Below are positions 1,113 to 19,282 of a stretch of 64,000 nt of DNA, piece by piece. The notes under the pieces were generated by a model, which was not told where the DNA came from, ran no database searches, and was given only the letters and a program-made list of their open reading frames with translations. The translations under genes and the position numbers were made by a program. The stretch's first letter is position 1; each line of letters begins with the position of its first letter. The DNA comes from Treponemataceae bacterium (GTDB lineage: Bacteria > Spirochaetota > Spirochaetia > Treponematales > Rectinemataceae): the NCBI GenBank assembly GCA_963678065.2, contig CAXXVZ010000003.1, positions 1,504,001-1,568,000 of the forward strand. Reading direction: 5' to 3'.

Positions 1113-1163
1113 TATGACCCCCTCGGTGGGTTGTATATAGACCGTCGTCATTAGGAGGATGCT

Positions 1164-1958: not shown

Positions 1959-1963
1959 ATAAT

Positions 1964-2037
1964 GGAAACCGCATGACAGGCCTCGAGCCTGCCGTGCGGT
2001 TTTCCTGAAGTCTCCGGAAAGACCGCATGAGGCAGGC
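1964..2037. repeat. Three-part inverted repeat (A, A-reverse, A) able to form alternative hairpins
   Basis: GGAAACCGCATGACAGGC (1964-1981), GCCTGCCGTGCGGTTTTCC (1987-2005), GGAAAGACCGCATGAGGCAGGC (2016-2037). Confidence 0.7.
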
Positions 2038-2074
2038 CGATTGGCAGTTCCATGGAGCATGAAAAAGGATCCAT

Positions 2075-2812: not shown

Positions 2813-2850
2813 TGTCACGGTGTATCGGCCGAATCGATGATGGAGAAATT

Positions 2851-5466
2851 ATGAGAACTAGGCCTGCTTCGAAGTGTCTTGTTTTTTTGGCTGCGCTCAT
2901 CGCGATGGGGTTCTTCTCGGGCTGTCCGATTCTCTCGAGTCTGATTCCAAAACCGGAAACGGGTACTCTGGATTTCAGCATCGCGGACGGCTCCGGTTCG
3001 AAGACACTCGACCCTGGTATAGACAGAACGGTCGCAAAATTTACTGTGACAGGGTCGGGCCCCTCCGGAGCTTCGTTCGCGCTGACCGACATTGCCGGTG
3101 GTGCTCATTCCAAAGGCGATCTTGCTGCGGGGGCTTGGTCGATTCGTGCGACAGGGAAGAATGCGGCGGGAGATGAGATTGTCGAAGACTCCGAGAATAT
3201 CACCATAACGGCGGGCAGTAGTACGGCAGTAACGCTGAACTGCCTTCCTATTACCGGGAACGGTGCACTATCTCTCGAACTGTCGTGGCCGATCGGTACA
3301 ATAGGCAATCCCGCAATCGATGCAAAGCTCACATCCCCTTCCGGAAGCGTACAGACGGTAGCGATGAGTATCTCCGGCACCGCCGCAACTGGAACGCGGT
3401 CCGGAATCGCGAATGGATTCTACACCCTGAGCATCAAATTGAAGGATATGGCGTACGATGGGCATCTCTCCTGGTCGAAGACAGAAACGGTGCTTATCAT
3501 GGCCGGAAAGACGACAACCGGCCGATGGGTCCTGACCGGGTCCGACCTCTCCCTTATCTCCACGGGTGGCATCTCGATCGGCATTACGAGCGACTCGAAG
3601 CAACCTATCGCAGTGAGTCTTTCGGGTACTGTACCGACCATCGATCCTGCAAGCCCTGTTACCGTGACTGCATCAGGTGTTCCGACGCCCGACTCATGGC
3701 AATGGTATCTGGATGGAGACCGGATGACCGGGCAGACCTCAGCCTCGATAACCATTGGTTCGAGTTTCGCTTCGGGCATGCACTCGCTCGATGTCATCGC
3801 AAAAAAAGGCGAGGTCTTTGGATCTTCCGGATTCCGTTTCCGGATCGGCTCGGGCTCGGTCCCGACAGGTTTCGCCTATACTCCTGCGACGCCGGTCTAC
3901 AAGGTTGATTTCGCCGGGCAGTCATCGAAAACGATAAGCGTCTCGGGAGCAGCCGGAAAGGCCCTGTATATGGTCAAGACGAATGCATCTTCATCCGCGG
4001 TGGCGGCATCGGATACCGGCGCGGCTCCGAGTGCCTCTTCCGGATATGCATCCAGAGAAAACATACCAGTAATGCTGACAAGGTTTCCTGATAAACCATA
4101 CAGGATCGATCATGCCGAAGCGACGAGATTCAACGAGAATCCGCCTCCGATTCTAAACCGAAGAGAGATCATGATTCCGGGAGCGAATCCGGTGATTCAT
4201 TACGGCGCAGGAGATCCTGCGTACACGGTCGATTCGACGATCAAGAATTTCTGGGTGGAAAATGCGAGCGGGGGATGGATCAGCATACCGGCAACCCTCA
4301 GAGCGATAGGCAGCTACTGCTACATCTGGGTCGCGAATGACAATTTCGCCAACTCTTCGACCGTCGCGAACGACAACAAGCTCACTTCCTCACAGATATC
4401 TTTCCTGAAGGAGAAGTTCGACGGTACACCGGCATCATCGTACAACAACGGAATATTCAAGAATGTGACGGGCATCTTTGGGTATGAATTCGGTGGTGGA
4501 GCTTCAGGAGGCGGGGGAAGAGACGCCGACCAGCACGTTGCAATCCTTGTATATGACATAGACTATGATTATTCGCCCTCTCAGAACAGCGGTGTCGTCG
4601 GGTATTTCTGGTCCAAGGATTATTTTTCTCAGGAAGAGCTTGCAGGCTGGGGATATTCGATCAAGACGAATTATTCCGAGATATGCTATATCGACTCGCA
4701 CTTCTCCGACAGGTATACAAACTACATCGTTTCCACGCTCGCCCATGAATATCAGCACATGATCAACTTCAACGAGAAGAGTGTGAAATGGGATCGGGAT
4801 TCTCCGGCATGGTCCAACGAAATGTGCTCGATGGTGGCGGAGGACCTGACCCTCGCAAACGTCGGCCTCGACCCAGCCGTGTATGGCGCACAGGATAGAC
4901 TTCCCGGATTCACCTATCACTACGCCGAATCCGGAGTCATCGACTGGTTGCCTGGATACGATGTAATGAAGAGCTATGCCGGAGCTTTCGCGTTCGGCGC
5001 TTATCTTGAGCGAAACTACGGCGGCGCGGATCTCTTCTCCCGCATCGCATTGAATAACTCCGTAGGACAGGCATCTATTACGGCAGCGCTGTCATCTGCC
5101 GGTTATTCCGAGACCTTCGAGACGGCTTTCAAAAAATATGGAGAAGCCCTGGTCTTCACGGACAGACCCGCCGGATCGAGCGTAAAAACCCTAAAAACCG
5201 GAGACACCAGCACCGTCGGAGGCATTTCCTATACCGTTGCTCCGATCGATCTCGCCACTATCCAGAACTACGATCTCGCATCGTCGAGATGGGTGCCCGG
5301 ATCCTTCGGAACGCGAATCTACGACATGGGCACTGCGGTTTCGCTACGGCCATTCGGATGCTCCATCCACTCGGGGGCTTCGTGGCAATCGCTTCCCGCG
5401 ACCGCATCCATCACCCTGAATGCCCCGACCGACACCAGTGTAGCGATGTACTTGATGGTCAAGTGA
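2851..5466 (+). CDS. Lipoprotein with N-terminal beta-sandwich domains and C-terminal peptidase M30 (hyicolysin-like) zinc metalloprotease
   Basis: GGAG SD before ATG 2851; lipobox FSGC; STLAHEYQHMINF zinc motif plus downstream W.NE; GVVGYFWSKD motif. Confidence 0.85.
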   Translation: MRTRPASKCLVFLAALIAMGFFSGCPILSSLIPKPETGTLDFSIADGSGSKTLDPGIDRTVAKFTVTGSGPSGASFALTDIAGGAHSKGDLAAGAWSIRATGKNAAGDEIVEDSENITITAGSSTAVTLNCLPITGNGALSLELSWPIGTIGNPAIDAKLTSPSGSVQTVAMSISGTAATGTRSGIANGFYTLSIKLKDMAYDGHLSWSKTETVLIMAGKTTTGRWVLTGSDLSLISTGGISIGITSDSKQPIAVSLSGTVPTIDPASPVTVTASGVPTPDSWQWYLDGDRMTGQTSASITIGSSFASGMHSLDVIAKKGEVFGSSGFRFRIGSGSVPTGFAYTPATPVYKVDFAGQSSKTISVSGAAGKALYMVKTNASSSAVAASDTGAAPSASSGYASRENIPVMLTRFPDKPYRIDHAEATRFNENPPPILNRREIMIPGANPVIHYGAGDPAYTVDSTIKNFWVENASGGWISIPATLRAIGSYCYIWVANDNFANSSTVANDNKLTSSQISFLKEKFDGTPASSYNNGIFKNVTGIFGYEFGGGASGGGGRDADQHVAILVYDIDYDYSPSQNSGVVGYFWSKDYFSQEELAGWGYSIKTNYSEICYIDSHFSDRYTNYIVSTLAHEYQHMINFNEKSVKWDRDSPAWSNEMCSMVAEDLTLANVGLDPAVYGAQDRLPGFTYHYAESGVIDWLPGYDVMKSYAGAFAFGAYLERNYGGADLFSRIALNNSVGQASITAALSSAGYSETFETAFKKYGEALVFTDRPAGSSVKTLKTGDTSTVGGISYTVAPIDLATIQNYDLASSRWVPGSFGTRIYDMGTAVSLRPFGCSIHSGASWQSLPATASITLNAPTDTSVAMYLMVK

Positions 5467-5777
5467 TCCCGCGGAGGAGTTTCCGTTCTCGGGTCATAAT
5501 ACTGTTTTTCAAGGAGTTGCAGGCTTAGGGAGAGAAGGAGCTTTCAGTCAAGCATATTGAGGAAGATAAAGGGGTATTCAGTGGGTGACGCTCATCGGAG
5601 CCCATGTCTCCTCGAAGACTGATGAACTCGTATGGGTGGGTACTCTGAGCGCTGCTGGCCCGGTGGACAACACATCGACATCAAGTTTTCTCGACGTGTT
5701 GGCCGCCGGTCTCTGATCAACTGCAACTGTGCTCCGTCCGGATAGGCCGGAACATTCTGAAAGGATACAGGAAAATT

Positions 5778-6929
5778 ATGAATAATTCGATTCGGTTTAA
5801 AATCGCGCTGGAGCGCTCCATTTTTTCAGCAATAGCAATAATCATTTTTCCCCTTTCGTTTGTGAGCTGTGACATGATCACCGGAGTAATGAATCCCCAC
5901 TCGACCACTACCACAAGTACGACAACTACGACCAGCACAACCACAACAATTCCAATCGTACATGCAACCGGTGCAGTCTGGCATGATTTTGATGATTATT
6001 CTCCAAAACCAAGCATGTGGACCGAGTCTTCCCTCTCGCTGTTGCCGCCGCCGTCCAGTATCCCTGGGTATGGGTGGGCATTCGATACCCATTTTTCATC
6101 TTCTGAAACCATAATTGTCGGCTTCAATACGGTTAACAATGGAGGCTACTGGCAGGATGGTGTATGGGTTTCGTTGGGCGACTTCTCTGTCATACCGAAC
6201 GGCGGTTCATTGAATGGACCTTACTGTGCTGTTGCCGCTTCTGAGATATATTTTGTCGGCCGAAAAGGTACAGGCGAAGGCGGTTATTTCAGAAATGCTG
6301 CTTGGCATTCGCTACCAACACTGCCGGGCACAATATCCGTCTCACCTTTAGGCGTTGTTCTCGTTGGAAGCGATCTGTACATCTCTGGCAATTGCTTTGA
6401 TGAAAGGGGAATGAAACATCCCTGTTATTGGAAAAACGATTCGGTTCATAGGCTGCCGGTCCTGGCTGATGCAAAAGAATCAAGTGCAGGAAGTATCTTT
6501 ATTGCAGATGGTATAATTTACAGTGCAGGCTGGCATCGTATTGAAGGTGAAATTATTGAAGTCGGTTATTGGAAGAATAACACCTGGATAAAAATGGACA
6601 GACAGACGAACCAAGTCGATTTTGAGACTTCGTCAATAGCTGTCTCCAGAGGTAAAGTATATCTGGGCATCTCAAGTCAAAGTCTCGTAAGTGGTGGATG
6701 TGGATATTTTGAGGACTCCTTCTGGAATCCATTGTCGATGAATGATGGGAAAATCCCCCATCTCATGTCGCTTTCGGTTTTCGGCAGCGATGTATATGTC
6801 GCCGGGTGCTACATCTCGGATGATTTCGCATCCGCGCTGCCGGGGTATTGGAAAAACAGAGAGTGGCACGAAGCTGTTTGTCCGGAAGAGTATCCTTTTG
6901 GTATAGTGTGCTCAGTCTCGTTGAAATAA
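5778..6929 (+). CDS. Lipoprotein with Thr-rich linker and repeated GYWKN-type beta-propeller
   Basis: Lipobox FVSC; STTTTSTTTTTSTTTT linker; six G/C-Y-W/F-x-N/D repeats. Confidence 0.75.
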   Translation: MNNSIRFKIALERSIFSAIAIIIFPLSFVSCDMITGVMNPHSTTTTSTTTTTSTTTTIPIVHATGAVWHDFDDYSPKPSMWTESSLSLLPPPSSIPGYGWAFDTHFSSSETIIVGFNTVNNGGYWQDGVWVSLGDFSVIPNGGSLNGPYCAVAASEIYFVGRKGTGEGGYFRNAAWHSLPTLPGTISVSPLGVVLVGSDLYISGNCFDERGMKHPCYWKNDSVHRLPVLADAKESSAGSIFIADGIIYSAGWHRIEGEIIEVGYWKNNTWIKMDRQTNQVDFETSSIAVSRGKVYLGISSQSLVSGGCGYFEDSFWNPLSMNDGKIPHLMSLSVFGSDVYVAGCYISDDFASALPGYWKNREWHEAVCPEEYPFGIVCSVSLK

Positions 6930-6931
6930 CT

Positions 6932-6972
6932 GCCTTCCGCGTGCTGCCACGCGGAAGGCTTCTGTCGTTTTT
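6932..6972 (+). terminator. Intrinsic terminator
   Basis: 12-bp stem GCCTTCCGCGTG/CACGCGGAAGGC, 4-nt loop, T-rich tail, right after stop codon. Confidence 0.75.
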
Positions 6973-7045
6973 GATCGGATTGTGATAGAAATTGTCAGGA
7001 GAGACGCACCTTAGTCCCGCACTTTTGGCACTTCCAGTGCCCGAC

Positions 7046-7495
7046 TTATTCTTTTCCTGGCGGTAGTCCCTTCCCTTCCGAAAAGAAGCTCACTCCTATA
7101 ATCCCCGCGATCAGTCCAACGATTTCCGGTATGATGCCGAATTCAAACCGGAATCCGACCTCCTTGAGTGGGATTTTCTCTCCCATGAAATCGATTCCCG
7201 ATGATTCGGCGTACACGTATGACACGACTATCGTTCCGATTGCGATGATACCACCCCACGAAAAAAGATCTTTCCGCTCATACAGTTTTTTTGTGCTGTT
7301 GAAATAGAAAAATGCCACGGTGAGAAAAACAGCAATTGCAAGAACTATCCACAACACAGGGAATCGGTTCGAGAGTTGCACTCCGGAATATCGCTCGAGA
7401 GTCTGCCCTGAGCATTGTATGCCAGCCCAGGGAAGGGAAAATGATATTACGGCGATTCCAAAACCGGCAGGACTGATGAATTTTTTGTTTTCCAT
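7046..7495 (-). CDS. Hypothetical membrane protein (about 4 TM segments)
   Basis: GAGG SD; hydrophobic segments; FSLPW motif near N-terminus. Confidence 0.7.
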   Translation of the reverse strand: MENKKFISPAGFGIAVISFSLPWAGIQCSGQTLERYSGVQLSNRFPVLWIVLAIAVFLTVAFFYFNSTKKLYERKDLFSWGGIIAIGTIVVSYVYAESSGIDFMGEKIPLKEVGFRFEFGIIPEIVGLIAGIIGVSFFSEGKGLPPGKE

Positions 7496-7615
7496 GGTAT
7501 CCTCGGTAATACATACACTGCGTATAAAAGTGATGCAGCCGTTGATGGAGACTCAATGGCTGCATCATTATGAAAAATTGGATCAATCGTTTTTGAATAC
7601 ACATCGTGTGGCATG

Positions 7616-8449
7616 TCAGATATCCCGTGTAACCTTCTGTACTTTAAAGATGAACTCTCCTTTTTTGAGAATGGTATTGGCTTGATCGACCTGAACGGGA
7701 ACCTCGAAAATCCCGAGAGTCCCTTTTTCAAGATAGGTCACCTTATTGCTGACGCTGTCATAGGCAACTCCCCCATCGAAGAATGCGAAGCCCTTGAAAG
7801 TCTCTCCTGGAAGAATGAATGAATCAGGGTCGTTGATCACCTTGAATTTCTTGTTCATCCCATATTTGGTCATCGCAAGACCATTGTAGATATTCATATA
7901 GACTTTCCAGGGGGTAACTGTCGGTATCAGCTTGGTCCTGTGCTTGATGATCTCCGCTTCAGCTGCGTTATTCATGAAATCGAATGTTCCCTGCTTGTCA
8001 AGACTGGTGAAGCGCTCCCCATCGGGCGTGATGAATCCGGCCCGGAGATCACGCATCTGGATTGTCCCTTTAGTATTGTTCGTGATAGAGATCTTGAATG
8101 TGTTCAGTCCGGCAGAGATCGGGAAAAAATAGTATTTCTTGTTGTTGTAAAAAAACATGTCCTGCATCCAGTATTGATAGACATTGTCACGCTTCATCTG
8201 CGCTTCGAGCTTGTCCTGGGGAATGCCGAGCATGGCTTCGAGATCGCTGTCCGCAAAGAAACGTTTCCAGCTATCGGTGGCAACATATTTTGCCGTAATG
8301 GTCACACCGTCGACGGTTATCGATGCGACCTCGCCAGAATCGAATTCATAGGTTTCGACTTTTTGTGGGACAACAGGCTTTGTGGCACACGATGCGAGGA
8401 GGACGACAAAAAAAAGCGAAAAAATGCAGATCCGTGCAGCACGTTTCAT
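7616..8449 (-). CDS. Hypothetical lipoprotein
   Basis: GAGGT SD before ATG 8449; lipobox LASC. Confidence 0.75.
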   Translation of the reverse strand: MKRAARICIFSLFFVVLLASCATKPVVPQKVETYEFDSGEVASITVDGVTITAKYVATDSWKRFFADSDLEAMLGIPQDKLEAQMKRDNVYQYWMQDMFFYNNKKYYFFPISAGLNTFKISITNNTKGTIQMRDLRAGFITPDGERFTSLDKQGTFDFMNNAAEAEIIKHRTKLIPTVTPWKVYMNIYNGLAMTKYGMNKKFKVINDPDSFILPGETFKGFAFFDGGVAYDSVSNKVTYLEKGTLGIFEVPVQVDQANTILKKGEFIFKVQKVTRDI

Positions 8450-8501
8450 TGAGTGTACCTCTTTATGGTGGGAATTGGGTCTGATCATGGTATCAAGCCG
8501 A

Positions 8502-8924
8502 TTATTCGGTCATCTTTGTGAATGTGAATTTGGTCTTCCCGATGCTTCCGCCCGCATTCATGGCAAGCGTAAGGGTCGAACCAACGATCTTCGCTTCATA
8601 GGGATATGTACTGTAAAGGGTATTCTGAAGGGAGAACACCATACCGAGGTTCGTAATCGTGACTTTGTTTTTCTCAACCGAGTATTTGAAATTGTCAGTA
8701 AAGAGATCATTCTTGGCCACCGCGGAACCGTCGGCATTAAATGTATATTTCTCGGGAGAAGTTGTTGGTAGCGTCGTTTTCTCGCTGTCTATTTCATATT
8801 CCACCAGTTTCCACGTACCGGTGATGTCGATATCCTTCGTCAGCCCCAAGAGATCACAGCCAGTAATGGCAAGACAGCCAAAAAGAAAAAAGAAAATTCT
8901 CCAAAATTTGATGTCGTTTTTCAT
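8502..8924 (-). CDS. Lipocalin-like (DUF5004-type) lipoprotein
   Basis: AAGGAGG SD; lipobox ITGC; ITGTWKLV and YTFNADGS motifs. Confidence 0.75.
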   Translation of the reverse strand: MKNDIKFWRIFFFLFGCLAITGCDLLGLTKDIDITGTWKLVEYEIDSEKTTLPTTSPEKYTFNADGSAVAKNDLFTDNFKYSVEKNKVTITNLGMVFSLQNTLYSTYPYEAKIVGSTLTLAMNAGGSIGKTKFTFTKMTE

Positions 8925-9295
8925 GTATTCCTCCTTGTGATGGTGTGAATGCAGCGAAACCACAGTCGTGAAACGGCTTTTCCGTCCTCCTTCAATAGTC
9001 AGATATCAATCGATTGGTGATATCGATAGTGCAAGTATTTAATACCGTGCCTCGTAGTGAGTGGTATCGGTGAAGATGGAATAGTGAACGGCCTGTATGG
9101 GAAGTGTCATAGGAAAATCTTTACATACCCCGGACACGTGTCACAGGTGTACAAGGAAGGGCATCGGCAGGCAGACGGAAATCTACATACGAAGTAATAA
9201 AAAAAGGTAATCATGGTTTCTTTTGAATCACGACCGCAGTACAATCGGAATGAGCATTTCGCAATCCGATGTCAGGTAGTCGTAAGGGAAAATCC

Positions 9296-12094
9296 ATGGT
9301 GAAATCAATCAAAACCGTGCATGAGCTTATAAACGAAGGCCGCATCCTCATCGAGGCGCGAAAATTCAGGGATGCCCACTTGTGCTTCATGGAGGCACGG
9401 GAGCGGGCGCTATCCGATACGGAGAGGGCGTATGCGGTGCTGGGCGTGGAAGAATGTGAACTGCACCTTCGCCTCGCAGTGGAGGACGGAGGGGAAGAAC
9501 TCGAATCGGCTCTTTCTGTTTTCACAGAGCGGGGAGACCATAAGGCTGAAGCTTGGGCACATATCTGCCTCGGAATCAGGAAACAGGCCACGCAAGATCT
9601 TGTCGGAGTGATAGATCTGCTCGAGGCAGGCCGCGCTGCCGCATGTGCGGGGAATGACAGGGAGGCGGAGGCAAGGGCACTTCTCGACATCGCCGCCATC
9701 CTCACTTTCAGGCGGCTTCCAGGCGATGCGGATCGCATGATGAAAGCCTTTGAACGCGGCTACGATCTGGCCGCGAAAGGTGACGCCTATGAGAGGACTG
9801 TTTCCGAAGCCGCACGGGGCATAGTCCGGTACACCTCCGGAGATCTCGCAAGCTCGGCCTCCGGTTACAGAGCCGCCACGGAAGGCTTCTCGAGCCTCGG
9901 CATGCCGGAGCAGGCCCTCGAGACCTCCGTTGCCCTTGGCGTGACCCTCCTGCGATCAGGCGCACGAGAGGAGGCGGAGCGGACCTTCCGGAAAACCGCG
10001 GAACTTGGGAGCTCACTCGACAGGAACATCGAGACGGGCGTGGCGCTCATGTACCTCGGACAGATGGCGGAGGGTTCCGGGCGCTTTTCCGAGGCATTCT
10101 CAAACTATTCCAGAGCAGAAGATAAATTGGCAAACGAGAACCACTACGGGGCGACGTTGAGGCTCGGACAGGCGCGCGCGCTGTGCGCCATGGGGCGATA
10201 CGCCGAAGTTGCCGGCAAACTCGATAGCGTCGCAGGATCGGCGACCGCGGCCGCCCGGATCTCGATTCCCATGATTCGGGCCATGGCGCTGTCGGGCGCC
10301 GGAAAGTACACGCAGGCGATTCGCGAGGCCGATATCGCGGTTGAGGAAGCCTCGGTTCAGGGAATGCCCCGACAGGAGGCCGAAGCCCGCGCCGTCCGTA
10401 TGGATTGCCTCCAAGCCTGCGGCGATTCAGTACGCGGCATGATGGACGCGGATGCCATTCTGGGCGTTCTTTCCGGATCCGCCCCGGCAACGACCCGGAG
10501 CGCCGCTCTGAGAGTCCGGGCCTCTGCATTCAGGACGAACGGAGATGTTGAATCAGCGATAGATCTCGCGAAAAAAGCCTGCTCCCTGCTTGTGGATGTG
10601 GATGCCCCGCTCGAATACGCGAGGGATAGCGCCGAACTCGGGCGCGCGCTTGCGGATTCCGGAGACAGCGAAGGGGCGGGAGAGGCCTTCCGCGTGGCCT
10701 GCACACGGGTTATGGAGGTGCGAAAAGATGCGCCTGAGTCCTATCGCCGGGATTTTCTCGATTCCATCCAGGAAATTTTCGCGGAACGCATCCGTTTTCT
10801 CGTGGACTCTGGCGATACTGCGGCGGCGTACAGAGAAGCTCTGCGCCTTCTTGCGCGCACCATGACCGAGCGTTTTGGCCTTACCGGAGAAGAAGAAGCC
10901 CCTGATCCCGGAACGAAGGCCGAGTTTGTCTTCCTGCCCTTGGGAAAGCGCTTCGCAACATTTGTCCGGACTGCGCGGGGATTGACCGCACGACTCATCG
11001 ATTCTGCCGAACTACTAGCGCTGGGTCCTACTGTGGCTACCATGTCCGATCACGGGGCTTTCAGGGGATTTTCGATCAAACAAACGGAAAAATCGCGAGA
11101 AACGATCGATCAGATTGCGGAAGCTGTTGCGCAATTCCGGGAAGCCCTGAGGATGAGAAAGACAAATATACCTGCTCTCGCCGCGGGCTTGTATGAAAAA
11201 CTTATCGCGCCTGCGGAATTTATCGCGGCAGACTGCCCAGTCTGGGTGATTTGCCCAGGGGGGGCATTCGCGGGTTTCCCGTTCGAAGCTCTTGAAGATT
11301 CCTTCGGCAAACGCATCATCGAACACAGGGAAATAGTCTACACAAAATCACCGCTGTTGGCATGCCGTGCGGAATCCGTACATGCAAACTCCGTACATGG
11401 GGCGGTTCTCGCCGTCGGAGACCCTTTGTCCGATGTGCATTCTGCGGCGAAGCCGCTAGAAGCGAAGGATACTGAAGCCGGTGGAGACTTTCCGACAGCG
11501 GCGGCGCGATTCATCGAACGGGCAGCGGATGCGGGACTCCCTCCCTTGCCTGGAGCGGCCCGAGAAGCAGAGGCCGCGTGCATGGGTGCGACCAAGTCAG
11601 AATTGCTCATTGGAGCCAACGCGACCAAGCGGCATTTCCTCGATTGCCTTCGTTCCGGGGAATGGGATACCCTCCACATTGCTGCCCACGCGCTTTACGC
11701 GGAATCGGGTAAGGAGGGAGCTATCCTCTTTCATCCGGATGGGGACAATATTTTGTCCACTCAGGAAATAGCCTCATTGTCGATCAACGTGCGGAGAGTC
11801 GTGCTATCTGCCTGCGCTTCCGCTTTGGGAAAGCCGTCCTGGAGCGAGGGGGCTTTCGGGCTCGTTGGAGCCTTCTTGGAGGCAGGGGCCAAAACGGTCT
11901 ACGCAACCCTCTGGCGCGTGCGCGACCTCCAAACAGCGGGATTCATGGAAAGGATGTACACGCTGGCTCGGGAATCGGGGCTCGGATTCGACGATGCATT
12001 TGCCGAATGCAAAAGACTGGCGGCATCCGGGGTGTGGGGGGCCGAATACGCTGATCCTGCGCTCTGGGCATCCTTCGTCCGTTATGGATTGTGA
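9296..12094 (+). CDS. TPR-repeat CHAT-domain caspase-like protease (clan CD)
   Basis: Long Ala-rich TPR-like helical N-terminus; C-terminal CHAT motifs FPFEAL, LPGAAREA, LHIAAH (His), VVLSAC (Cys), TLWRVRD, PALWASF; no signal peptide; start could be 9269. Confidence 0.9.
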   Translation: MVKSIKTVHELINEGRILIEARKFRDAHLCFMEARERALSDTERAYAVLGVEECELHLRLAVEDGGEELESALSVFTERGDHKAEAWAHICLGIRKQATQDLVGVIDLLEAGRAAACAGNDREAEARALLDIAAILTFRRLPGDADRMMKAFERGYDLAAKGDAYERTVSEAARGIVRYTSGDLASSASGYRAATEGFSSLGMPEQALETSVALGVTLLRSGAREEAERTFRKTAELGSSLDRNIETGVALMYLGQMAEGSGRFSEAFSNYSRAEDKLANENHYGATLRLGQARALCAMGRYAEVAGKLDSVAGSATAAARISIPMIRAMALSGAGKYTQAIREADIAVEEASVQGMPRQEAEARAVRMDCLQACGDSVRGMMDADAILGVLSGSAPATTRSAALRVRASAFRTNGDVESAIDLAKKACSLLVDVDAPLEYARDSAELGRALADSGDSEGAGEAFRVACTRVMEVRKDAPESYRRDFLDSIQEIFAERIRFLVDSGDTAAAYREALRLLARTMTERFGLTGEEEAPDPGTKAEFVFLPLGKRFATFVRTARGLTARLIDSAELLALGPTVATMSDHGAFRGFSIKQTEKSRETIDQIAEAVAQFREALRMRKTNIPALAAGLYEKLIAPAEFIAADCPVWVICPGGAFAGFPFEALEDSFGKRIIEHREIVYTKSPLLACRAESVHANSVHGAVLAVGDPLSDVHSAAKPLEAKDTEAGGDFPTAAARFIERAADAGLPPLPGAAREAEAACMGATKSELLIGANATKRHFLDCLRSGEWDTLHIAAHALYAESGKEGAILFHPDGDNILSTQEIASLSINVRRVVLSACASALGKPSWSEGAFGLVGAFLEAGAKTVYATLWRVRDLQTAGFMERMYTLARESGLGFDDAFAECKRLAASGVWGAEYADPALWASFVRYGL

Positions 12095-12645
12095 TCGGCG
12101 CTGGAACGCACAAGACCGAGAGATTTCGGATCGAGGGCGAGGGGACGTTCTGACCGGCAATACCCTTCCGCTCCACGCCATTTTTCGTCGGGCAGAGTGT
12201 TCTCGGCAAGATCTCCCGCCGCAATGATGACGAGATGCGAATCGTCGATCCCATCCCAGACTAGATCCCCTGATCCCGGGACGCGCACATCCTTACCCGC
12301 AAGGGCCTGCCACTCCGTGAGGATCTCGGCCGGTCCTTCTTTCCCGGAACGGATGAGAAAACAGCGACAATCGCAGTCGGTGATAATATGAAGAGCGAAA
12401 TGTTTTTCGGCTTCCGCTGAATCGGACACCTCTACTCTCCACAAGAAAGGCAGGGGAAGGTCCTGTCCTCCTACGCGATCAGCAGCTGCAAAAAGGGCCA
12501 GAGCTGTCGCCCGCACAGAAGCGGAGAGTGATCGGGATGGATCCGGAGTGATGGGAGCGTTGGGCATAAACATAGTGTAAAGCCCTCCCTCATGCATGTA
12601 AAGCTGGACCCGGGACCTGGCCATGAGGCTGGATGGCGGATTCAT
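12082..12645 (-). CDS. Hypothetical protein with DUF4384-like C-terminal beta domain
   Basis: ATGA overlap with upstream regulator stop; FALHIITDCDCRCFLIRSGKEG...LAGKDVRVP resembles DUF4384 pattern (by eye). Confidence 0.5.
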   Translation of the reverse strand: MNPPSSLMARSRVQLYMHEGGLYTMFMPNAPITPDPSRSLSASVRATALALFAAADRVGGQDLPLPFLWRVEVSDSAEAEKHFALHIITDCDCRCFLIRSGKEGPAEILTEWQALAGKDVRVPGSGDLVWDGIDDSHLVIIAAGDLAENTLPDEKWRGAEGYCRSERPLALDPKSLGLVRSSADHNP

Positions 12646-13313
12646 GCTTTATCCTGACTCCTCGCAAGGGGTAAATCGGCATCGATGGCCAGTCTGACGA
12701 GACCGATGTCCGATTCGACACCAAGTTTCTTCTTGATATTCCGCTTGTGGATGTCGACGGTTTTCCGGGATATTCCCAGTTCAGCCGCTATGGCTTTCGG
12801 AGGCTTCTCTTCGCAGAAGAGGCGAAGAATCCTGCGCTCGCGGTCGGTGAGCGAGGAGAACCTCCCCCCTCGGAACAAATCGCAGGAGGTGCTTCCGGCA
12901 AGATATGAAACGACAATCAGGTCAAGAATCTCCGGACTCAGAAACCGATGCCCTGAAAGCACAGTTTTTATGGCACGATCGAGTTCTTCGTAGGCGCTCA
13001 TTTTGAGGACAAAGCCGTCCGCACCGGCTTCCAGCAAGCCCTTCGTGAGGGATTCGTTGCGTTGGTCTGAGAGTATGATGACTCTGGATAATGGAGAAGC
13101 GGACTTGAGCGCGGGCACCAAGTCCAAAGCGGATTCGTTGTGGAGCACAATATCGGTGAGTATGACGTCGGGTAGCAGTTCGCCTGCCAAAGAAAGTGCT
13201 TCTCCTCTGAACGAGGCTTCGCCGGCAACGATCGTGGCGTCCCGCGTGGAAAGCAGCATTTTTAACCCTTCCCTGAAGAGCGTGTGCGCGTCGACAAGAA
13301 GTATTCGCATCAT
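12642..13313 (-). CDS. NarL/LuxR-family response regulator (REC + LuxR HTH)
   Basis: ILLVDAHTLFREGL, DVILTDI, GFVLK, LTDRERRILRL...IAAELGISRKTVDIHKRNI. Confidence 0.9.
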   Translation of the reverse strand: MMRILLVDAHTLFREGLKMLLSTRDATIVAGEASFRGEALSLAGELLPDVILTDIVLHNESALDLVPALKSASPLSRVIILSDQRNESLTKGLLEAGADGFVLKMSAYEELDRAIKTVLSGHRFLSPEILDLIVVSYLAGSTSCDLFRGGRFSSLTDRERRILRLFCEEKPPKAIAAELGISRKTVDIHKRNIKKKLGVESDIGLVRLAIDADLPLARSQDKA

Positions 13314-13571
13314 GCTAGTCTGCCATCCCTGATTTCCCGGATCCCCGGTGGAAGCAAATATGGCGCTCTCCACCCGCCAACTTTGATTTCAACCATTCCG
13401 GGGTGCTCCGTTTCTTCCATGTTATGAGATTTAGCGAGCATATCTTCATCAGACAGGAGCCGGAAATAGGAAATATGGGAAAATGCGGATAAAGAAAACC
13501 ATGCAGAATAAGCATATGCGTAGAAAACTCCTACGGGACGACTGCCATCCGGGTCAGACCTCGATCATTTT

Positions 13572-14222
13572 CTAAAAAGAGAAATCGGCATCGAGGATGA
13601 GCCTGACAAGGCCTATGTCTGATTCTACACCGAGTTTTCTCCGGATGTTCCGCTTGTGAATATCCACCGTCTTGCGGGATATGCCCAACTCCGCCGCTAT
13701 GACATTCGGAGTTTTTTCATCACAAAAAAGGTGGAGTATCCTTCGCTCTCGGCTAGTGAGCGTTGTAAACCTTCCCTCCATGCGGCCATCACAGGACGCC
13801 TTCCTCGACGCCATGGGATCAACAAGCAGATCAGAAACTTCGGGACTCAGGAACCGGCGGCCGGACTGCACCACCCTCAAGGCAAGATCGAGTTCCTTGT
13901 AGGCGCTCGTCTTGAGGACGAAACCCACTATACCCGCCTCGAACAGCTCCCGGATCTGGAATCCCGTACCGATATCGGAGAGGATGATGATTCTGGACGA
14001 GGGCGAGACAGATGCGAATTCGGAAACGATGGTACGAGCGGAGCCCTCATGCGCGGCCATGGAGAAGATAATAATGTTGGGACGCACATCGCGCACCGTG
14101 AGGTATGCATCCTGTGCGCAGGATGCTTCGCCGACAACAGCCGTGGCATCCCGGAACGAGAGCAACATTTTCAAGCCTTCCCGGAAAAGCGCATGTGCAT
14201 CGACGATAAAAATTGTCGCCAT
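13572..14222 (-). CDS. NarL/LuxR-family regulator paralog with pseudo-receiver
   Basis: Close paralog of 12642..13313; phospho-Asp position reads NIIIFS. Confidence 0.85.
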   Translation of the reverse strand: MATIFIVDAHALFREGLKMLLSFRDATAVVGEASCAQDAYLTVRDVRPNIIIFSMAAHEGSARTIVSEFASVSPSSRIIILSDIGTGFQIRELFEAGIVGFVLKTSAYKELDLALRVVQSGRRFLSPEVSDLLVDPMASRKASCDGRMEGRFTTLTSRERRILHLFCDEKTPNVIAAELGISRKTVDIHKRNIRRKLGVESDIGLVRLILDADFSF

Positions 14223-14409
14223 CAGGCCGTACCTTGTGCCATGCTCCGCGGGGTAGTGTGAGGCAGGAGAAAGGCGCCCATCGTTCACTCAGAATTGCAC
14301 TAAAGCAATATGAATAGATATAAGAATAAATCTTCAACGCGTCTGTGTAAATAAGCATTTATTATCTCGCGTGTAAATGTATTGAATGTTTTGAAGTGAA
14401 TGCACAAGA

Positions 14410-14438
14410 TTGCCGCAAAGCGGCGTTTCCGTTACACT
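14410..14438 (+). promoter_or_regulatory. Sigma70-type promoter of manA (likely leaderless)
   Basis: TTGCCG-17 nt-TACACT, ATG 7 nt downstream, no SD. Confidence 0.55.
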
Positions 14439-14445
14439 TCGGTCC

Positions 14446-15798
14446 ATGCGGATATACAGGCTCGAAAACACGGTGCAGCGATACGTCTGGGGCAGCGTCG
14501 ACGGCCTCGCAGAAACCCTCGGTATTCCCAATCCGGAGGGAAAACCGGCGGCCGAACTCTGGATGGGGGCCCATCCCGGAGCGCCGAGCATCGCCGTCAC
14601 GGAAGGTGGCAAGCTGGGCCTCGATCAGCTCATCGCCGCGGATCCGGAGGGCAGTCTGGGCGGGTGCGTTGCCGCCAGATTCGGAAATACCCTGCCCTTC
14701 CTTTTCAAGGGACTCTCCGCAGGGACTCCGCTCTCGATCCAGACCCACCCGGACAAAAAAACCGCCGAGGCGGGATTCGCCCGTGAAAATGCCAGCGGCA
14801 TTCCTCTCTCGTCTCCGCTCCGGACCTACAAAGACAACAATCACAAGCCGGAGATGACTCTCGCCATGACCCGCTTCGAGGGGCTGTGCGGATTCCGAAG
14901 CCCCGGGACGATTGCGCGCAATCTTGAGGCGGTGCTTGGCGCGGAGTTGGCCGCGAAAATCGGGCTTGTCAGTGTCGGTGTCAGCGTCAGGAAACCGGCG
15001 CCGGAAAGCGCGGGTGAATCATTCCTGTACGACCTCGTGGCCGGCCTCCTCGGACTTGAGGGGCAGGACAAGGTAGTTCTTTTGTCCGCGCTCAGGGCCG
15101 GGATCGACTCACTCCTCGCGTCGTGGAGCGCGGGGAACAGCGGCCCCGGCGGGATCGACTCATCTGAGCAGGAGGCCTTCGCCTGGGTCGCGCGTCTCCT
15201 CGACCTGTATCCGGGGGATATGGGCGTCCTCATGCCTCTTGTCCTGAATCATGTCGCGCTACAGCCGGGAGAGGCCATCTTCATAGGAGCCGGCGTCATG
15301 CACGCGTATCTTTCGGGCACGGCTCTCGAGATCATGGCCAACTCCGACAATGTCATCCGCGGGGGACTGACGCCCAAGCACGTCGACCTGCCCGAACTCC
15401 TCAGAGTCGTGAGCTTCGAGCCGGGGCGGCCGGGGATCGAGACGGCGGAAGCAGCTGCGCCGGCCGAATTTCCCGCCCGCACAGCCGACGCGCCCGGCGG
15501 CCGGCTGCCGCGTGAGGAAGCCTGGCCCGTCCGCGCAGCCGAGTTCGCGCTTTCCCGCATCGAGCTTCCGCCGACGGAGAGCGCCGTGGGTGGAGCCGAC
15601 GCTCCGGACTCATGCTTCGGGATTCTGACGGAGGGGCCGGAGATACTTCTGTGCACGAAGGGCCGGGTCCGGATTGCAGACGGGGAAGGCTCCCTCGACC
15701 TCGCGAAAGGCGAATCGGCCTTCCTCCGCGCGGACGCGGGACAGTGCCTGATCCGCGGCGACGGAATGGTCTACCGCGCGCGGGTACCCTCCGCATGA
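14446..15798 (+). CDS. manA: Mannose-6-phosphate isomerase, class I
   Basis: YVWGS, AELWMGAHP, PLSIQTHP, NHKPEM, HAYLSG, EIMANSDNVIRGGLTPKH. Confidence 0.95.
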   Translation: MRIYRLENTVQRYVWGSVDGLAETLGIPNPEGKPAAELWMGAHPGAPSIAVTEGGKLGLDQLIAADPEGSLGGCVAARFGNTLPFLFKGLSAGTPLSIQTHPDKKTAEAGFARENASGIPLSSPLRTYKDNNHKPEMTLAMTRFEGLCGFRSPGTIARNLEAVLGAELAAKIGLVSVGVSVRKPAPESAGESFLYDLVAGLLGLEGQDKVVLLSALRAGIDSLLASWSAGNSGPGGIDSSEQEAFAWVARLLDLYPGDMGVLMPLVLNHVALQPGEAIFIGAGVMHAYLSGTALEIMANSDNVIRGGLTPKHVDLPELLRVVSFEPGRPGIETAEAAAPAEFPARTADAPGGRLPREEAWPVRAAEFALSRIELPPTESAVGGADAPDSCFGILTEGPEILLCTKGRVRIADGEGSLDLAKGESAFLRADAGQCLIRGDGMVYRARVPSA

Positions 15799-16280
15799 CC
15801 CTCTGGGCAGACGCCGACAGTCTCCAGCCGGAGATCCGCGCCCTCCTGGAACGCCGCGCCGCTTCCGAAGCCGCACGGCGGGCGGGAACAGGCCTCGCCC
15901 CCCGCTTCGACCTCGTCTTTGTCGCCTCGAAAAAGCTCAAAGTCGGCCCCGCGGTCCGCTTCGAGCTCGTCGAGAAGGGAGCCGACGCAGCCGACGACCG
16001 CATAGCCGGCGGGGCCCGACCCGGAGATCTCGTCGTGACCCGCGACCTTCCTTTCGCCGAAAGACTGGCTCTCGCCGGCGTCGCCGTGCTCAACGACAGG
16101 GGGGACAGCTTCACCGCCGACAATGTCCGTGAACGGCGTTCCCTGCGCGACCGCGCGGCCGAACTGCGCGCCTTAGGGCTCGCTCCGGAGTCGTCGAAAC
16201 GCCGCAGCTGGGGGAAGAAAGAGTTCAAGGATTTCGCGGACGCGCTGGATAGGACCATCACACAATTACTTATTTTATAA
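15795..16280 (+). CDS. YaiI/YqxD (DUF188) family protein
   Basis: ATGA overlap with manA; WADADS, DAADDRI, GDLVVTRDLPFA. Confidence 0.85.
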   Translation: MTLWADADSLQPEIRALLERRAASEAARRAGTGLAPRFDLVFVASKKLKVGPAVRFELVEKGADAADDRIAGGARPGDLVVTRDLPFAERLALAGVAVLNDRGDSFTADNVRERRSLRDRAAELRALGLAPESSKRRSWGKKEFKDFADALDRTITQLLIL

Positions 16281-16420
16281 ATAATTGTTTTTTATTCGCG
16301 CGTATGTTTTGAAGGGACCGGTGGCGGCGCGATCGTGGCCGCCCCGGCCTCCTTTCCCGGCTCATCTTCGGCTCATCCTTGACAGAAAAGCCCGTCGCTC
16401 CTCTCGTCCCGAATCGCCCG

Positions 16421-18160
16421 CTAGCGGAGTCCCGAAACGGTCCTGAGGAGCTCGAGATCCTTCAGGAGATTCGCTTCGCCCGGGAATATCGCGAGGGAAG
16501 CGAGCAGCGAATTCTTCGCCTCGGCGTAGCGTTTCGCGTTGAACAGCGAGACGAAGCGGTTGTGCGATTCGACGATGGCATTGCTCCGGTAAACGCCCGT
16601 AAGCTCGCGGAACGTGGCGGTATCGGCCAGCCCGGCGCCGGAGAGAAACTTCCACGCGTCCAGGGCGCTTTGCTTTTTTTCCAGCCGCCCTGCTTCGCGC
16701 GAGGCGAGATACAGGCGGGCATTCTCGAGATCGGCAGGTTTTACGGCCGCGCGGACTTCGGCCGCTGAGAGATCGGCCATTCCCGAGGCGTAGTCGCGAC
16801 TGTCCTGAGCGCGGTTGTACAGGGCCATGCCGATGATGTCCTCGTAGCGGCCATGCTCGGTCGCGGGTATGAGGCCAGAGGCGGTCCGGGAGGCGATAAG
16901 GCGTCGCGCGGCTTCAAAATCCCCCGATTTGGTGAGGGCGAGGACCTGGTTGTGAGTGGCTGTCCTGACGAATTCGGCGGAGCGGGTGCTCTTTTCCGAG
17001 TACGTCGGATTGGCGAGGATGAGATCGAGGCCGCGGTTCCAGTCCCCGGACTCTCCCAGCTCGCCGAGCCAGTTGTCCACGGCGACCCGCGCGATCCGGT
17101 CCAACCCCGGCTCCTCTCCGTACTTCCCGCGCGCCTCGTTCACGAACTCCAGCGCCGACCTGTAGTCCCCCGAATTGGAAAGCTCGCCTGCGGCGTTGCG
17201 GAACCGCGTGAACATGAAATCCTTGGAATCTTTGTCTTTTTCCGAAACGAAATAGTCGACGCCGGGGCCGACGGAAGGCAGGAAGCGGTCGCCCCGGTCG
17301 GCTTCGGAGATCCGGTTCGAGAGGATGAGTGTCACGAGTCGCTTCGCGCTTATCGCTGTCCTTCCCGCGTAGTTCTTGGGCGGGACATAGGCGAAACCCG
17401 TCACTTTGCCAAACGAGTCCGAGAAATTTTTCTTCGATCCGGGATCGAAACCGTAGCGGGTCGTGGTCTCGACATCGATGCTGCCGCCCGGAACGGCCAG
17501 CACGCAGAAGGCGTGGTCGGCTGTCGAGATCCCGGAAACCTCGAGTCCGGCCGCCCGCGCGAAGACGAGAAACATGACGGCGGAGGAGACGCAGTTGAAT
17601 TCGCCGGCCGAAAAGGCGAGGTCGAGGCTGGACTGGTGTCCGGAATACCTGCGGAGATAGGTGTCGTGCATGGACAAAAGAAGCTTCTCGGCCTTTGCCG
17701 CGGGGGCGGCGATACCGGCCACTTTCGAGGCCTCGGAGCGCGCGAGGGACAGTATCTTCGCTGTCCGGAGGCGCAGGGTATCTCCTTCGAGCCCGGAAAA
17801 GGCGAGCGCCGACCGGACGAGGGCCTCGAGTTCGGGGAGGCGCACCTCGTGCGAAAGCGCCGTCGCCTCGGGGAGGGGATCGAGGCGCCAGGGGTGAGTC
17901 GGGGCGGGGCTGGATGGCGAAGGAAAAAATGCGGCGGGAAGCGGTGGCGTGGTCGACGTCGTGGTCGTAGCGACCGTCGTCGCGGGATTTGCGGGGGCGA
18001 GGGTGGTGGCCGTCGACGTTCCCGGTTTGGCCGGCTTTCCTCCCGAAGTCGCGACGATGCCGGGGCGGCTTGCGCAGCTGCCGAGGAGCGCCGCAATGGC
18101 AAAAACCGCGAGAGTGGGTGAGGCTCGGAAAAGGCGGGCGACTCCGGTGCGGTCAGACAT
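16421..18160 (-). CDS. Lipoprotein with transglutaminase-like domain and helical repeats
   Basis: Lipobox LGSC; Thr/Pro linker; FNCVSS (Cys), DHAF (His), DVETT. Confidence 0.75.
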   Translation of the reverse strand: MSDRTGVARLFRASPTLAVFAIAALLGSCASRPGIVATSGGKPAKPGTSTATTLAPANPATTVATTTTSTTPPLPAAFFPSPSSPAPTHPWRLDPLPEATALSHEVRLPELEALVRSALAFSGLEGDTLRLRTAKILSLARSEASKVAGIAAPAAKAEKLLLSMHDTYLRRYSGHQSSLDLAFSAGEFNCVSSAVMFLVFARAAGLEVSGISTADHAFCVLAVPGGSIDVETTTRYGFDPGSKKNFSDSFGKVTGFAYVPPKNYAGRTAISAKRLVTLILSNRISEADRGDRFLPSVGPGVDYFVSEKDKDSKDFMFTRFRNAAGELSNSGDYRSALEFVNEARGKYGEEPGLDRIARVAVDNWLGELGESGDWNRGLDLILANPTYSEKSTRSAEFVRTATHNQVLALTKSGDFEAARRLIASRTASGLIPATEHGRYEDIIGMALYNRAQDSRDYASGMADLSAAEVRAAVKPADLENARLYLASREAGRLEKKQSALDAWKFLSGAGLADTATFRELTGVYRSNAIVESHNRFVSLFNAKRYAEAKNSLLASLAIFPGEANLLKDLELLRTVSGLR

Positions 18161-18178
18161 GATTCTCCTCCCTGTGAA

Positions 18179-19282
18179 TTATGGAGATGGCGGAACCGTC
18201 GGGGCGGCGGCTCCATCCTGCCCCGGGGTCGGCTCTCCCTGCGCCGCGGGGACTTGGTTCGCGGCGCCTGGGGAAGCAGCTTCGGCTCCCGTCCCGGAGA
18301 CCGCGCCCACATCGCCAGCAGTGCCGGTGTCGCCGGTACCGCCTTGGGCGGGAGCCTCGTCGTCGAGGGCGGAAGGCTCGATGCCCTGGGGCGGAGGCTG
18401 GAACTGCGTCGCCTGGTCGGGAAGCTGGGCACCGCCACCCGTGTAGCGGCGCGAAAGGTAGGCGTAGCGCTCGCGGAGGATACCCGAGCGAGAGAGGTTG
18501 GAGGGATTGTACTTGATCGGCGAAGACAGGAGGGCGACGAGGCGCGCCGCCTCGTCCCGGTTCAGGGCGGCGACGGTCTTTTTGTAGTATTTCAGGGAGG
18601 CCGGCTCGATCCCGAAAAGCCCCTTGCCCCACTCCGCGTAGCCGAAATAGAGCTCAAGTATCCTGTCCTTGTCGAGGAAAGCTTCCAGTTCGAGGGCCGT
18701 GATGATCTCGAAGTACTTCCTGATATAGCTCTTTTCGGGGACGAGAAAGAGAGTTCTCGCCACCTGCATGGTGAGGGTCGACCCGCCGTAGAGGGGTCTG
18801 CCGACGATGGCGTTGATCTGTCTCGCCCTTTTGAAAGCCTCGAAATCGAGACCGTGGTGCGTGTAGAATTTGCCGTCCTCCACGGAAACCAGCATGGAAC
18901 GGATGTAAACCGGTATTTTCTTGAGGGATCGAGGTTTCGGGGCTTCAACCTTCCAGCCGTAGAGCACCGCACGGTAGACCATGATGACGCTCGCGGGTGG
19001 GTCGTAGGCCTTGTAGACGAGGATGAGGAGACAGGTCGTCACGATGTACCAGGCGTGGATGGCGAGGACGAGGAGGGCCAGAAAACGCAGCGCCCTGACG
19101 ATGAAGACCGGTTTCCCGGTGCGGGAGGCGGGACTCGCCATGACCGCGGCGGCTCCTGCCGGGAAGCTTCCGGACAGTTTGCCCGCGAGGGCTCGCGCCA
19201 TCCGGAGCTGCGCGAGCGCGCTCTCCGCAGCGGTGGATCTGCGCGGGACAAACCGGGCCGATCGGGATGATCCGGATTCCAT
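18179..19282 (-). CDS. mtgA: Monofunctional peptidoglycan transglycosylase (GT51)
   Basis: EDGKFYTHHG, GGSTLTMQVAR, KDRILELY, EWGKGLFGI; start codon uncertain. Confidence 0.85.
   Translation of the reverse strand: MESGSSRSARFVPRRSTAAESALAQLRMARALAGKLSGSFPAGAAAVMASPASRTGKPVFIVRALRFLALLVLAIHAWYIVTTCLLILVYKAYDPPASVIMVYRAVLYGWKVEAPKPRSLKKIPVYIRSMLVSVEDGKFYTHHGLDFEAFKRARQINAIVGRPLYGGSTLTMQVARTLFLVPEKSYIRKYFEIITALELEAFLDKDRILELYFGYAEWGKGLFGIEPASLKYYKKTVAALNRDEAARLVALLSSPIKYNPSNLSRSGILRERYAYLSRRYTGGGAQLPDQATQFQPPPQGIEPSALDDEAPAQGGTGDTGTAGDVGAVSGTGAEAASPGAANQVPAAQGEPTPGQDGAAAPTVPPSP

Follow-up and report, generated by a model that had tools for sequence, protein, structure and literature searches.

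A conserved spirochaete cassette of a TPR-CHAT protease, a small DUF4384-like protein, and LuxR-type pseudo-receiver regulators: a candidate kinase-independent signaling unit

Layout and conservation of a three-gene cassette

The window analyzed here is a 64,000-nucleotide stretch of DNA from a Treponemataceae bacterium (contig CAXXVZ010000003.1, positions 1,504,001 to 1,568,000), and our subject is the region from 9296 to 14222, which encodes a predicted TPR-CHAT caspase-clan protease, a small partner protein, and two regulators of the NarL/LuxR type. We refer to the protease, small, and regulator genes together as the cassette. All four open reading frames (ORFs) lie where a preliminary description, prepared from the sequence without database searches, had placed them (9296 to 14222). 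The features of the cassette, numbered by window position, are as follows.

9296 to 12094, plus strand: TPR-CHAT caspase-clan protease gene, 932 amino acids (aa), product predicted to be cytoplasmic; alternative start at 9269
11063 to 11071, plus strand: Arg-Gly-Phe, residues 590 to 592 of the protease, ahead of the CHAT domain; possible site of self-cleavage or autoinhibition
11687 to 11689, plus strand: codon of the predicted catalytic His798, assigned from alignment and sequence
11813 to 11815, plus strand: codon of the predicted catalytic Cys840, assigned in the same way
12082 to 12573, minus strand: small partner gene, product probably 163 aa, with a predicted helix and Ig-like beta sandwich; the open frame reaches 12645 (187 aa)
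12172 to 12177, minus strand: Arg-Gly with which the variable late loop of the small protein ends; possible site of cleavage
12584 to 12591, minus strand: Shine-Dalgarno-like stretch 10 nucleotides before the ATG at 12573, assigned from sequence and homologue starts
12642 to 13313, minus strand: regulator 1, NarL/LuxR type, predicted pseudo-receiver; alternative GTG start at 13373
13572 to 14222, minus strand: regulator 2, a local paralogue of the same type with the same pocket loss and the phospho-Asp replaced by Ser

Residues 628 to 931 of the 932-residue protein match the CHAT domain of Pfam (PF12770; E = 5.6e-44, 151 bits against a cutoff of 24), and this domain is preceded by helical repeats whose TPR matches are below the Pfam cutoff. 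All 6 full-length rows in the protease alignment retain the His798/Cys840 dyad; the residue after the His is Ala rather than Gly, which is also the case in 15 of the 69 generic CHAT proteins scored. A hydropathy scan detected no hydrophobic or signal-like N terminus in any of the 7 proteins of the subfamily. Based on the Pfam match, the dyad, and the N termini, we conclude that this is a predicted CHAT protease with an intact dyad, in agreement with the cytoplasmic TPR-CHAT enzyme of the preliminary description. The structural model (predicted local distance difference test score [pLDDT] of 72; predicted template modeling score [pTM] of 0.51) matches DdvA first (8rot, E = 1.4e-12) and then separases, while the craspase TPR-CHAT protein is at rank 49. 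No second CHAT gene is present in the genome. The Arg-Gly-Phe at residues 590 to 592 is invariant in all 7 alignment rows, inside an otherwise variable loop (residues 571 to 608, pLDDT below 50); a similar Arg-Gly-Phe-type motif occurs there in 8 of 61 generic CHAT proteins, which is the chance or background rate.

The protease gene and the small gene are convergent and overlap by 13 bp, as previously described, and the stop of regulator 1 overlaps the start of the long form of the small gene by 4 bp at 12642 to 12645. No kinase or sigma factor was found among 15 neighboring proteins scanned (a chosen subset of the ORFs in 1 to 18200), which is consistent with the earlier claim that a kinase is missing from the neighborhood. 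A Pfam scan found no toxic effector domain in the cassette, and PADLOC 2.0 gave no match for the protease or for 6 small proteins and only HTH-level CARF3 matches for regulator 1. Promoter and terminator scans were at chance level, and no RNA data set holding the cassette was listed among 15 runs.

Among 95 matches to the protease, 6 besides the protein itself are orthologues (44 to 52% identity), and the rest align over at most 38% of its length; with cluster members included, the orthologues represent six lineages besides the window. All 6 of these CHAT lineages have a regulator of the CHAT-linked clade described below, and 5 of the 6 have the small gene; each of the 5 homologues of the small protein is paired with a CHAT orthologue, as the preliminary description had expected of a genuine partner. 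One lineage was read as DNA (the near-identical loci L016, L018, L019, and L022), and the others were linked by consecutive accessions or by equal-sized contigs. In the DNA-read lineage, a protease gene (plus strand, 44% identity), a small gene (minus strand, 31%, E = 2e-21), and one regulator gene (minus strand, 49.5%) have the order and orientation found in the window, with no overlap between genes; in L016 the regulator stop and the small-gene start are likewise separate. Consecutive accessions pair HOV94755.1 with HOV94756.1 in this lineage, and in another, MEN6477739.1, 740.1, and 741.1 are regulator, small protein, and protease, respectively. Three further small homologues share with a protease the same source and an equal longest contig (8401, 7930, and 24272 bp), and regulators were also found on contigs of 8401, 7930, 24272, 5789, and 91101 bp; equal contig size lets us infer linkage, as distinct from reading it in DNA. 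In the sixth protease lineage (5789-bp contig), the small protein is not listed and may be hidden in a 50% cluster. Flanking genes change from lineage to lineage and the three cassette genes remain together. Codivergence over six loci is weak (rho of 0.68, 0.58, and 0.37, with 11, 60, and 107 of 720 permutations as high), and these kin are not independent. Chance juxtaposition was rejected on the conserved order in related DNA and the homologues of the small gene.

The layout is therefore real and conserved, and the cassette is rare. The profile search for the small protein covered 1.84 billion representatives and gave 11 matches, namely, the protein itself, 5 homologues (137 to 170 aa), and 5 long repeat proteins, which we set aside as artefacts (P0107 and P0108 by inspection; P0110 to P0112 on their length and repeated short stretches). 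Among 68 other genomes of the family, the protease has strong matches in 2 and one weak match besides; among 400 other genomes of the order, 1 has the small gene. The small protein was not found in 72,556 plasmid records, 50,697 phage records, and 400 genomes of the phylum, and a first metagenome scan gave no match. The named relatives are Rectinema, Treponema, and Spirochaetales records, which point to a spirochaete host. A decayed cassette is present at L020:3216-8903, where the protease gene is internally deleted and truncated, transposase-like ORFs lie between the regulator and a lipoprotein gene, and a restriction-modification-like gene is nearby.

The small partner protein and the regulators

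Four of the 5 homologues of the small protein start near its Met25, and the fifth is annotated as shorter. Because of these starts, the Shine-Dalgarno-like stretch, and the lack of overlap in L016, the small protein probably starts at 12573, for a product of 163 aa. The preliminary description had proposed that the small gene is translationally coupled to regulator 1. The 4-bp overlap exists, but a start at 12573 makes both the coupling and the long N-terminal segment doubtful, and the overlap is probably incidental. A strain variant of the gene differs in codons 25 to 187 by 11 silent and 5 replacement changes (ratio of nonsynonymous to synonymous polymorphism [pN/pS] of 0.16, p = 4e-4). The small gene is real and under purifying selection; the possibility of a spurious ORF was rejected on the homologues and on this selection.

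A model built from a six-row alignment (pLDDT 77, pTM 0.72) has a helix at residues 18 to 31, a beta sandwich, and a long loop at about 121 to 138. The family consists of one domain, with 152 to 170 aa in 5 of 6 members and 137 in the sixth. Its structural neighbors are generic Ig/FN3-like domains (best Z of 6.0), and fold searches listed no Csx30 chain and no match of any kind at E ≤ 0.001 or Z ≥ 8. A PDB sequence search gave 2 chance matches, single-sequence searches gave only the protein itself, and the Atlas gave no usable match for the window protein. DUF4384 (PF14326) has no Pfam match in any of the 6 members and none in the genome. For orthologue P0104, 25 of 30 Atlas language-model neighbors are DUF4384 clusters (top score, 0.91), and hhalign against 29 spirochaete DUF4384 domains aligned 112 columns with an E value of 0.0018 and a score of 25.5, at a probability of only 15; the score was at most 19.2 in 50 column shuffles and 14.2 for the reversed alignment. 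With a hidden Markov model of the 29 domains, none of the six small proteins scored above 2.1 bits, and a pairwise profile comparison with the DUF4384-like protein of locus L039 was blank. The small protein also differs from DUF4384 proteins in having an N-terminal helix and no signal peptide. The earlier label "DUF4384-like" is thus a fair one with modest support: the protein weakly resembles the family, of which it is at most a candidate member.

The preliminary description had also given the small protein an N-terminal segment and an exposed linker. A construction like that of Csx30, with an anti-factor domain at the N terminus and then a linker, is not supported: in size the protein matches the substrate domain of Csx30 alone, and the long loop of variable sequence is near the C terminus. 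That late loop varies in length and ends in an aromatic residue or Leu followed by Arg-Gly in 5 of 6 members. Predictions of a complex between residues 85 to 932 of the protease and residues 10 to 156 of the small protein scored 0.25 and 0.27 against a mark of 0.32, with controls not folded.

Both regulators consist of a receiver (REC) domain and a LuxR helix-turn-helix (HTH) domain according to Pfam, and they are 58% identical, with a DNA identity of 70 to 75% at 909-bp spacing. The five catalytic receiver residues (DD1, DD2, D, T/S, and K) are incomplete in both. Regulator 1 has Ala at the metal-binding position (DD2) and Asp at T+1 and keeps Asp54, Ser82, and Lys104; regulator 2 also has Ala at DD2, and Ser in place of the phospho-Asp. 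True receivers, as described in PMC12632262, invariably have an acidic residue at the metal-binding position and usually a small one at T+1, and these two positions mark pseudo-receivers. We aligned 28 regulators and labeled groups in the resulting tree according to the pocket, the few columns of which form part of the alignment. Eighteen of the 28 are on one side of a branch with support of 100/96 when the long-branch row P0140 is left out; when it is included, P0140, which is canonical, falls inside the clade (support, 99/94). Of the 18 clade members, 16 carry a non-acidic residue at the metal-binding position, 1 carries Glu there, and 1 is a truncated row that lacks the position; 17 have Asp or Glu at T+1, 15 keep the phospho-Asp, and all 18 keep the Lys. 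The other 10 regulators have the metal-binding Asp in 9 and Asn in 1, and none has an acidic T+1. Nine of the 18 clade rows are at protease loci, 1 matches the decayed L020, and 6 are on contigs shorter than 3.6 kb, while none of the 10 regulators outside the clade shares a contig size with a protease orthologue. We conclude that the CHAT-linked regulators form one clade of predicted pseudo-receivers with a decayed phosphorylation pocket. The locus of one clade member, P0131, was not found in 400 genomes of the class.

The recognition helix of the LuxR domain is almost invariant in both groups of regulators; therefore, the DNA target has probably been kept while the input changed. The linker between REC and LuxR is variable in sequence. 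Regulator 2 is a local, lineage-specific duplicate, and the DNA-read relative has a single regulator. The second paralogue of the preliminary description is thus present, but a design that depends on twin regulators is unsupported.

All 7 HisKA_3 (NarL-type) kinases of the genome adjoin a canonical regulator of their own, and no spare NarL-type kinase was found in the HisKA_3 class surveyed. The possibility, raised earlier, that a cognate kinase elsewhere explains the regulators is not borne out by this survey or by the pseudo-receiver pockets. The one CHASE2 protein of the genome was considered as the missing kinase and rejected, since it resembles a nucleotide cyclase, which we take it to be from its motif. 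In genome G042, a canonical sister regulator (49% identity to regulator 1) is head-to-head with a Peptidase_C14-FGE gene, and a DUF4384-like gene (E = 2e-4) and a CHASE2-HATPase kinase are nearby; this kinase has no match in the cassette's genome at E = 1e-4. This one locus suggests that the regulator family was originally driven by a kinase and controlled a caspase-DUF4384 locus. The region concerned (L039:3879-10009, on contig C23 of G042) is next to tuf and comprises the sister regulator, a Peptidase_C14-FGE-sulfatase gene, a second FGE gene, and the CHASE2-HATPase kinase; its DUF4384-like gene encodes a signal-like N terminus, and the whole is a candidate periplasmic caspase-gated two-component system.

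A proposed proteolytic switch and its alternatives

What the data establish is that the three genes co-occur, that the protease has an intact dyad, that selection acts on the small gene, and that the receivers have degenerated as a clade. Most simply, the protease and its partner would provide the input that the regulators have lost. Our tentative proposal, to which we give somewhat less than an even chance, is that the three genes are a kinase-independent signaling unit in which the protease would cut the small partner and thereby switch the pseudo-receiver regulator, with the biochemical steps modeled on better-known systems. The TPR solenoid would keep the protease off until a cytoplasmic ligand binds, perhaps with its own Arg-Gly-Phe loop as a latch. 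The small beta sandwich would dock on the CHAT domain, as the C-terminal domain of Csx30 docks on Csx29. The minimal Csx30 substrate is a 170-aa C-terminal domain (residues 396 to 565) that attaches to the CHAT2 domain and has its cut site in a loop (PMC10028731), and DUF4384 is described as one class of Csx30 C-terminal domain and as often fused to proteases (bioRxiv 2022.08.17.504292). The cut would fall after the Arg of the Arg-Gly in the late loop of the small protein, freeing its last strands; we regard Arg-Gly as the first candidate site because HetF, which cuts PatU3 (PMC9457339), and separase (PMC11506125) both cut after Arg. The intact small protein would bind the pseudo-receiver, and cleavage would alter that binding; since it has no anti-sigma domain, its hold on the regulator would have to come from the N-terminal helix or the sandwich. 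The LuxR domain would then turn on neighboring genes, most plausibly the surface-lipoprotein cluster, because genes for lipoproteins border the protease promoter in both DNA-read lineages and differ from strain to strain. Regulator 2 may tune the output as a heterodimer. The small protein may thus act as the substrate and anti-activator of the preliminary description, and these two roles are ones that we infer. It is possible, if doubtful, that the history behind this unit is a response regulator that swapped its input, in that its kinase was dropped, its pocket decayed, and control of it passed to a cytoplasmic sensor protease of the caspase clan, which acts by cutting a free-standing DUF4384-like partner.

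Several points weigh against the proposed switch. All of its proteolytic steps rest on analogy, and the small protein lacks a distinct domain comparable to the N-terminal one with which Csx30 binds sigma. Docking of Csx29 with Csx30 is reported to be charge complementary (PMC10028731); by a crude measure, the CHAT domain and the small protein are both net negative in 6 of 6 pairs. The convergent orientation puts the protease and its partner on separate transcripts, Arg-Gly is absent in 1 of the 6 small proteins, and regulator 1 retains Asp54, Ser82, and Lys104. The kinase survey covered the HisKA_3 class. Two regulators of the clade, P0131 (82,903-bp contig) and P0132 (9,675 bp), have no listed CHAT orthologue on an equal-sized contig, and L020 has an intact regulator beside a truncated CHAT gene and insertion sequences, with no match to the small gene. 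Four lineages are linked solely by equal-sized contigs, and the loci of known taxon are all in one narrow spirochaete group, so that shared descent explains part of the linkage.

Some of the same observations fit a different explanation, in which the regulator merely transcribes the island and the protease and small protein are a pair with an output of their own, such as defence, cell death, or protein processing, and no proteolytic input to the regulator. We regard this as unlikely. The canonical sister regulator flanks a caspase and DUF4384-like locus, and the family may simply act locally to control genes of the caspase clan; regulators may persist where the protease is gone, as in L020, P0131, and P0132; and the patchy spread and lower-G+C patch fit a conflict island. 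However, this explanation offers no input for regulators that have lost the phosphorylation pocket across their clade, and the small gene is behind the regulator, on the same strand, rather than with the protease. The absence of PADLOC matches for the protease or partner and of a toxic effector domain in the cassette also argues against it.

The cut itself could be elsewhere. If the small protein were an uncut adaptor or a securin-like inhibitor, the true substrate would be the regulator, between its receiver and LuxR domains, or the Arg-Gly-Phe loop of the protease. The Arg-Gly-Phe of the protease is kept in 7 of 7 rows versus 5 of 6 for the Arg-Gly of the small protein, which is almost entirely one compact domain; DUF4384 is described as commonly fused to proteases, and the receiver-LuxR linker is variable. 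By eye, though, no candidate cleavage motif is conserved in that linker, and the closest precedent, Csx30, is reported to be cut inside its docking domain, and we consider an uncut adaptor quite unlikely. That the regulators are phosphorylated in trans or respond to a ligand, with the three genes as co-inherited island passengers, is very improbable: the phospho-Asp (15 of 18 clade rows) and Lys (18 of 18) are kept and the loci are few, in hosts that are all related where known, but the metal-binding Asp is lost and T+1 is acidic across the clade, there is no spare HisKA_3 kinase, and the three genes stay linked among flanking genes that differ between lineages.

The nearest known system to our proposed switch is the type III-E craspase, or CASP (Cas7-11, Csx29, Csx30, Csx31, and CASP-sigma), which as published shares with the cassette a cytoplasmic TPR-CHAT protease with His and Cys 42 to 43 residues apart, a neighboring partner with a beta domain of a class that includes DUF4384, and a transcription factor as likely output. 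It differs in that there is no Cas7-11/RAMP gene in the cassette's genome (PF03787 has no match in G000, which is 99.9% complete, while the control matched in 5 of 14 genomes) and no Csx31 or sigma factor nearby; the Csx29 model NF041237 scores 15.8 bits on the cassette protease against a cutoff of 300; and the partner here is 152 to 170 aa with no anti-sigma domain, with a REC-LuxR protein as output. The cassette is not a type III-E system. Its protease has as its top fold match DdvA of the DdvA-DdvS system of Myxococcus xanthus (a TPR-CHAT anti-sigma factor and an extracytoplasmic function [ECF] sigma factor), a TPR-CHAT system with no CRISPR effector that has been proposed to gate transcription by proteolysis (PMC11506125). 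In contrast, DdvA is a membrane anti-sigma factor with a periplasmic TPR-CHAT region, whereas hydropathy indicates no signal or membrane segment in the cassette protease, whose partner and regulator are separate proteins. The cassette probably works like craspase or DdvA-DdvS, by protease-gated transcription, but is a member of neither.

Two further comparisons are with HetF-PatU3 of Anabaena, in which we take HetF to be a CHAT-family protein, and with the atypical NarL regulators. HetF, like the cassette protease as we propose it, is a CRISPR-free protease that cuts a dedicated regulator, after Arg; it differs in being a divisome component that acts in development, and the abstract of PMC9457339 mentions neither a DUF4384-like partner nor a LuxR regulator. 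BldM, WhiI, and other pseudo-receivers of the NarL type are orphans without receiver catalytic residues, and paralogue heterodimers are known among them (PMC12632262); in the cassette, a protease and its partner are conserved neighbors, whereas "proteolysis" does not occur in the main text of that source.

TPR-CHAT proteases are described as widespread and little known outside craspases (PMC11506125), and the switching of pseudo-receivers has been called a mystery (PMC12632262). With a candidate substrate, cut site, and transcriptional readout in about 4 kb of soluble proteins, the cassette would allow both questions to be tested in one reconstitution, within the limits set by its rarity and narrow host range. 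If the proposed switch is correct, it would represent a protease-partner-regulator signaling class, DUF4384-like domains would be general caspase docking and cleavage modules, and the cassette would be a minimal CRISPR-free TPR-CHAT pathway in which to seek the activating ligand. In full-text literature searches we found no description of this combination of CHAT protease, DUF4384-like partner, and LuxR pseudo-receiver, although the gene-neighborhood tables of PMC8195603, PMC7159879, or the craspase papers could hold one; kinase-free receiver domains are noted in conflict systems, without this cassette, in the portions of PMC8195603 and PMC7159879 that deal with them.

The surrounding island

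The cassette is at the right edge of a lower-G+C patch of putative lipoprotein genes, which is listed here with one of its genes.

1 to 14400, no strand: lower-G+C patch (0.46 to 0.59 versus 0.59 to 0.67 in most flanking bins), containing the cassette and putative lipoprotein or membrane genes
5778 to 6929, plus strand: Kelch-like putative lipoprotein gene (weak Kelch match), a candidate target gene

A homologue of the 5778-to-6929 lipoprotein is head-to-head with the CHAT gene in the DNA-read lineage (tblastn E = 7e-32 in L016, L019, and L022 and 2e-26 in L018). Upstream of the cassette, the near-identical loci L016 (5631 to 6425) and L018 (4083 to 4841) carry different lipoprotein genes, which suggests a variable slot. 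In the window, four putative lipoprotein genes are in tandem at 336 to 5466; the last encodes 885 aa with a weak Pfam match only and an HEYQH motif, which is presumably metallopeptidase-like. Before this operon at 336 there is a 6-6-6 palindrome at 182 to 207, which is AT-rich and only a possible operator. A 14-base stretch overlapping the palindrome recurs in the lipoprotein-protease intergenic region of L016, and a half-site is present before both regulators. A search for a shared operator by k-mers and palindromes gave only AT-rich 8- to 9-mers and one 14-mer.

The CHAT gene of genome G028 was considered as a relative of the cassette and rejected, as it encodes a different, apparently secreted protein; at L017:7369-16993 (contig C234 of G028), this unrelated TPR-CHAT gene lies between genes for a 730-aa LuxR-HTH protein, an ankyrin-like protein, and a lipoprotein like that at 5778 to 6929. 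The only Cas1 locus of the cassette's genome is 375 kb from the cassette, is apparently type I judging by its ORFs, and is unrelated to it; the CRISPR-Cas region (L073:4845-19788; contig C3 of G000, about 1,132,800 to 1,147,800) has Cas1, Cas3-like, and Cas7-like genes and a long array. To the right of the cassette, phosphomannose isomerase and YaiI/YqxD genes at 14443 to 16280 mark the return to host-like G+C content.

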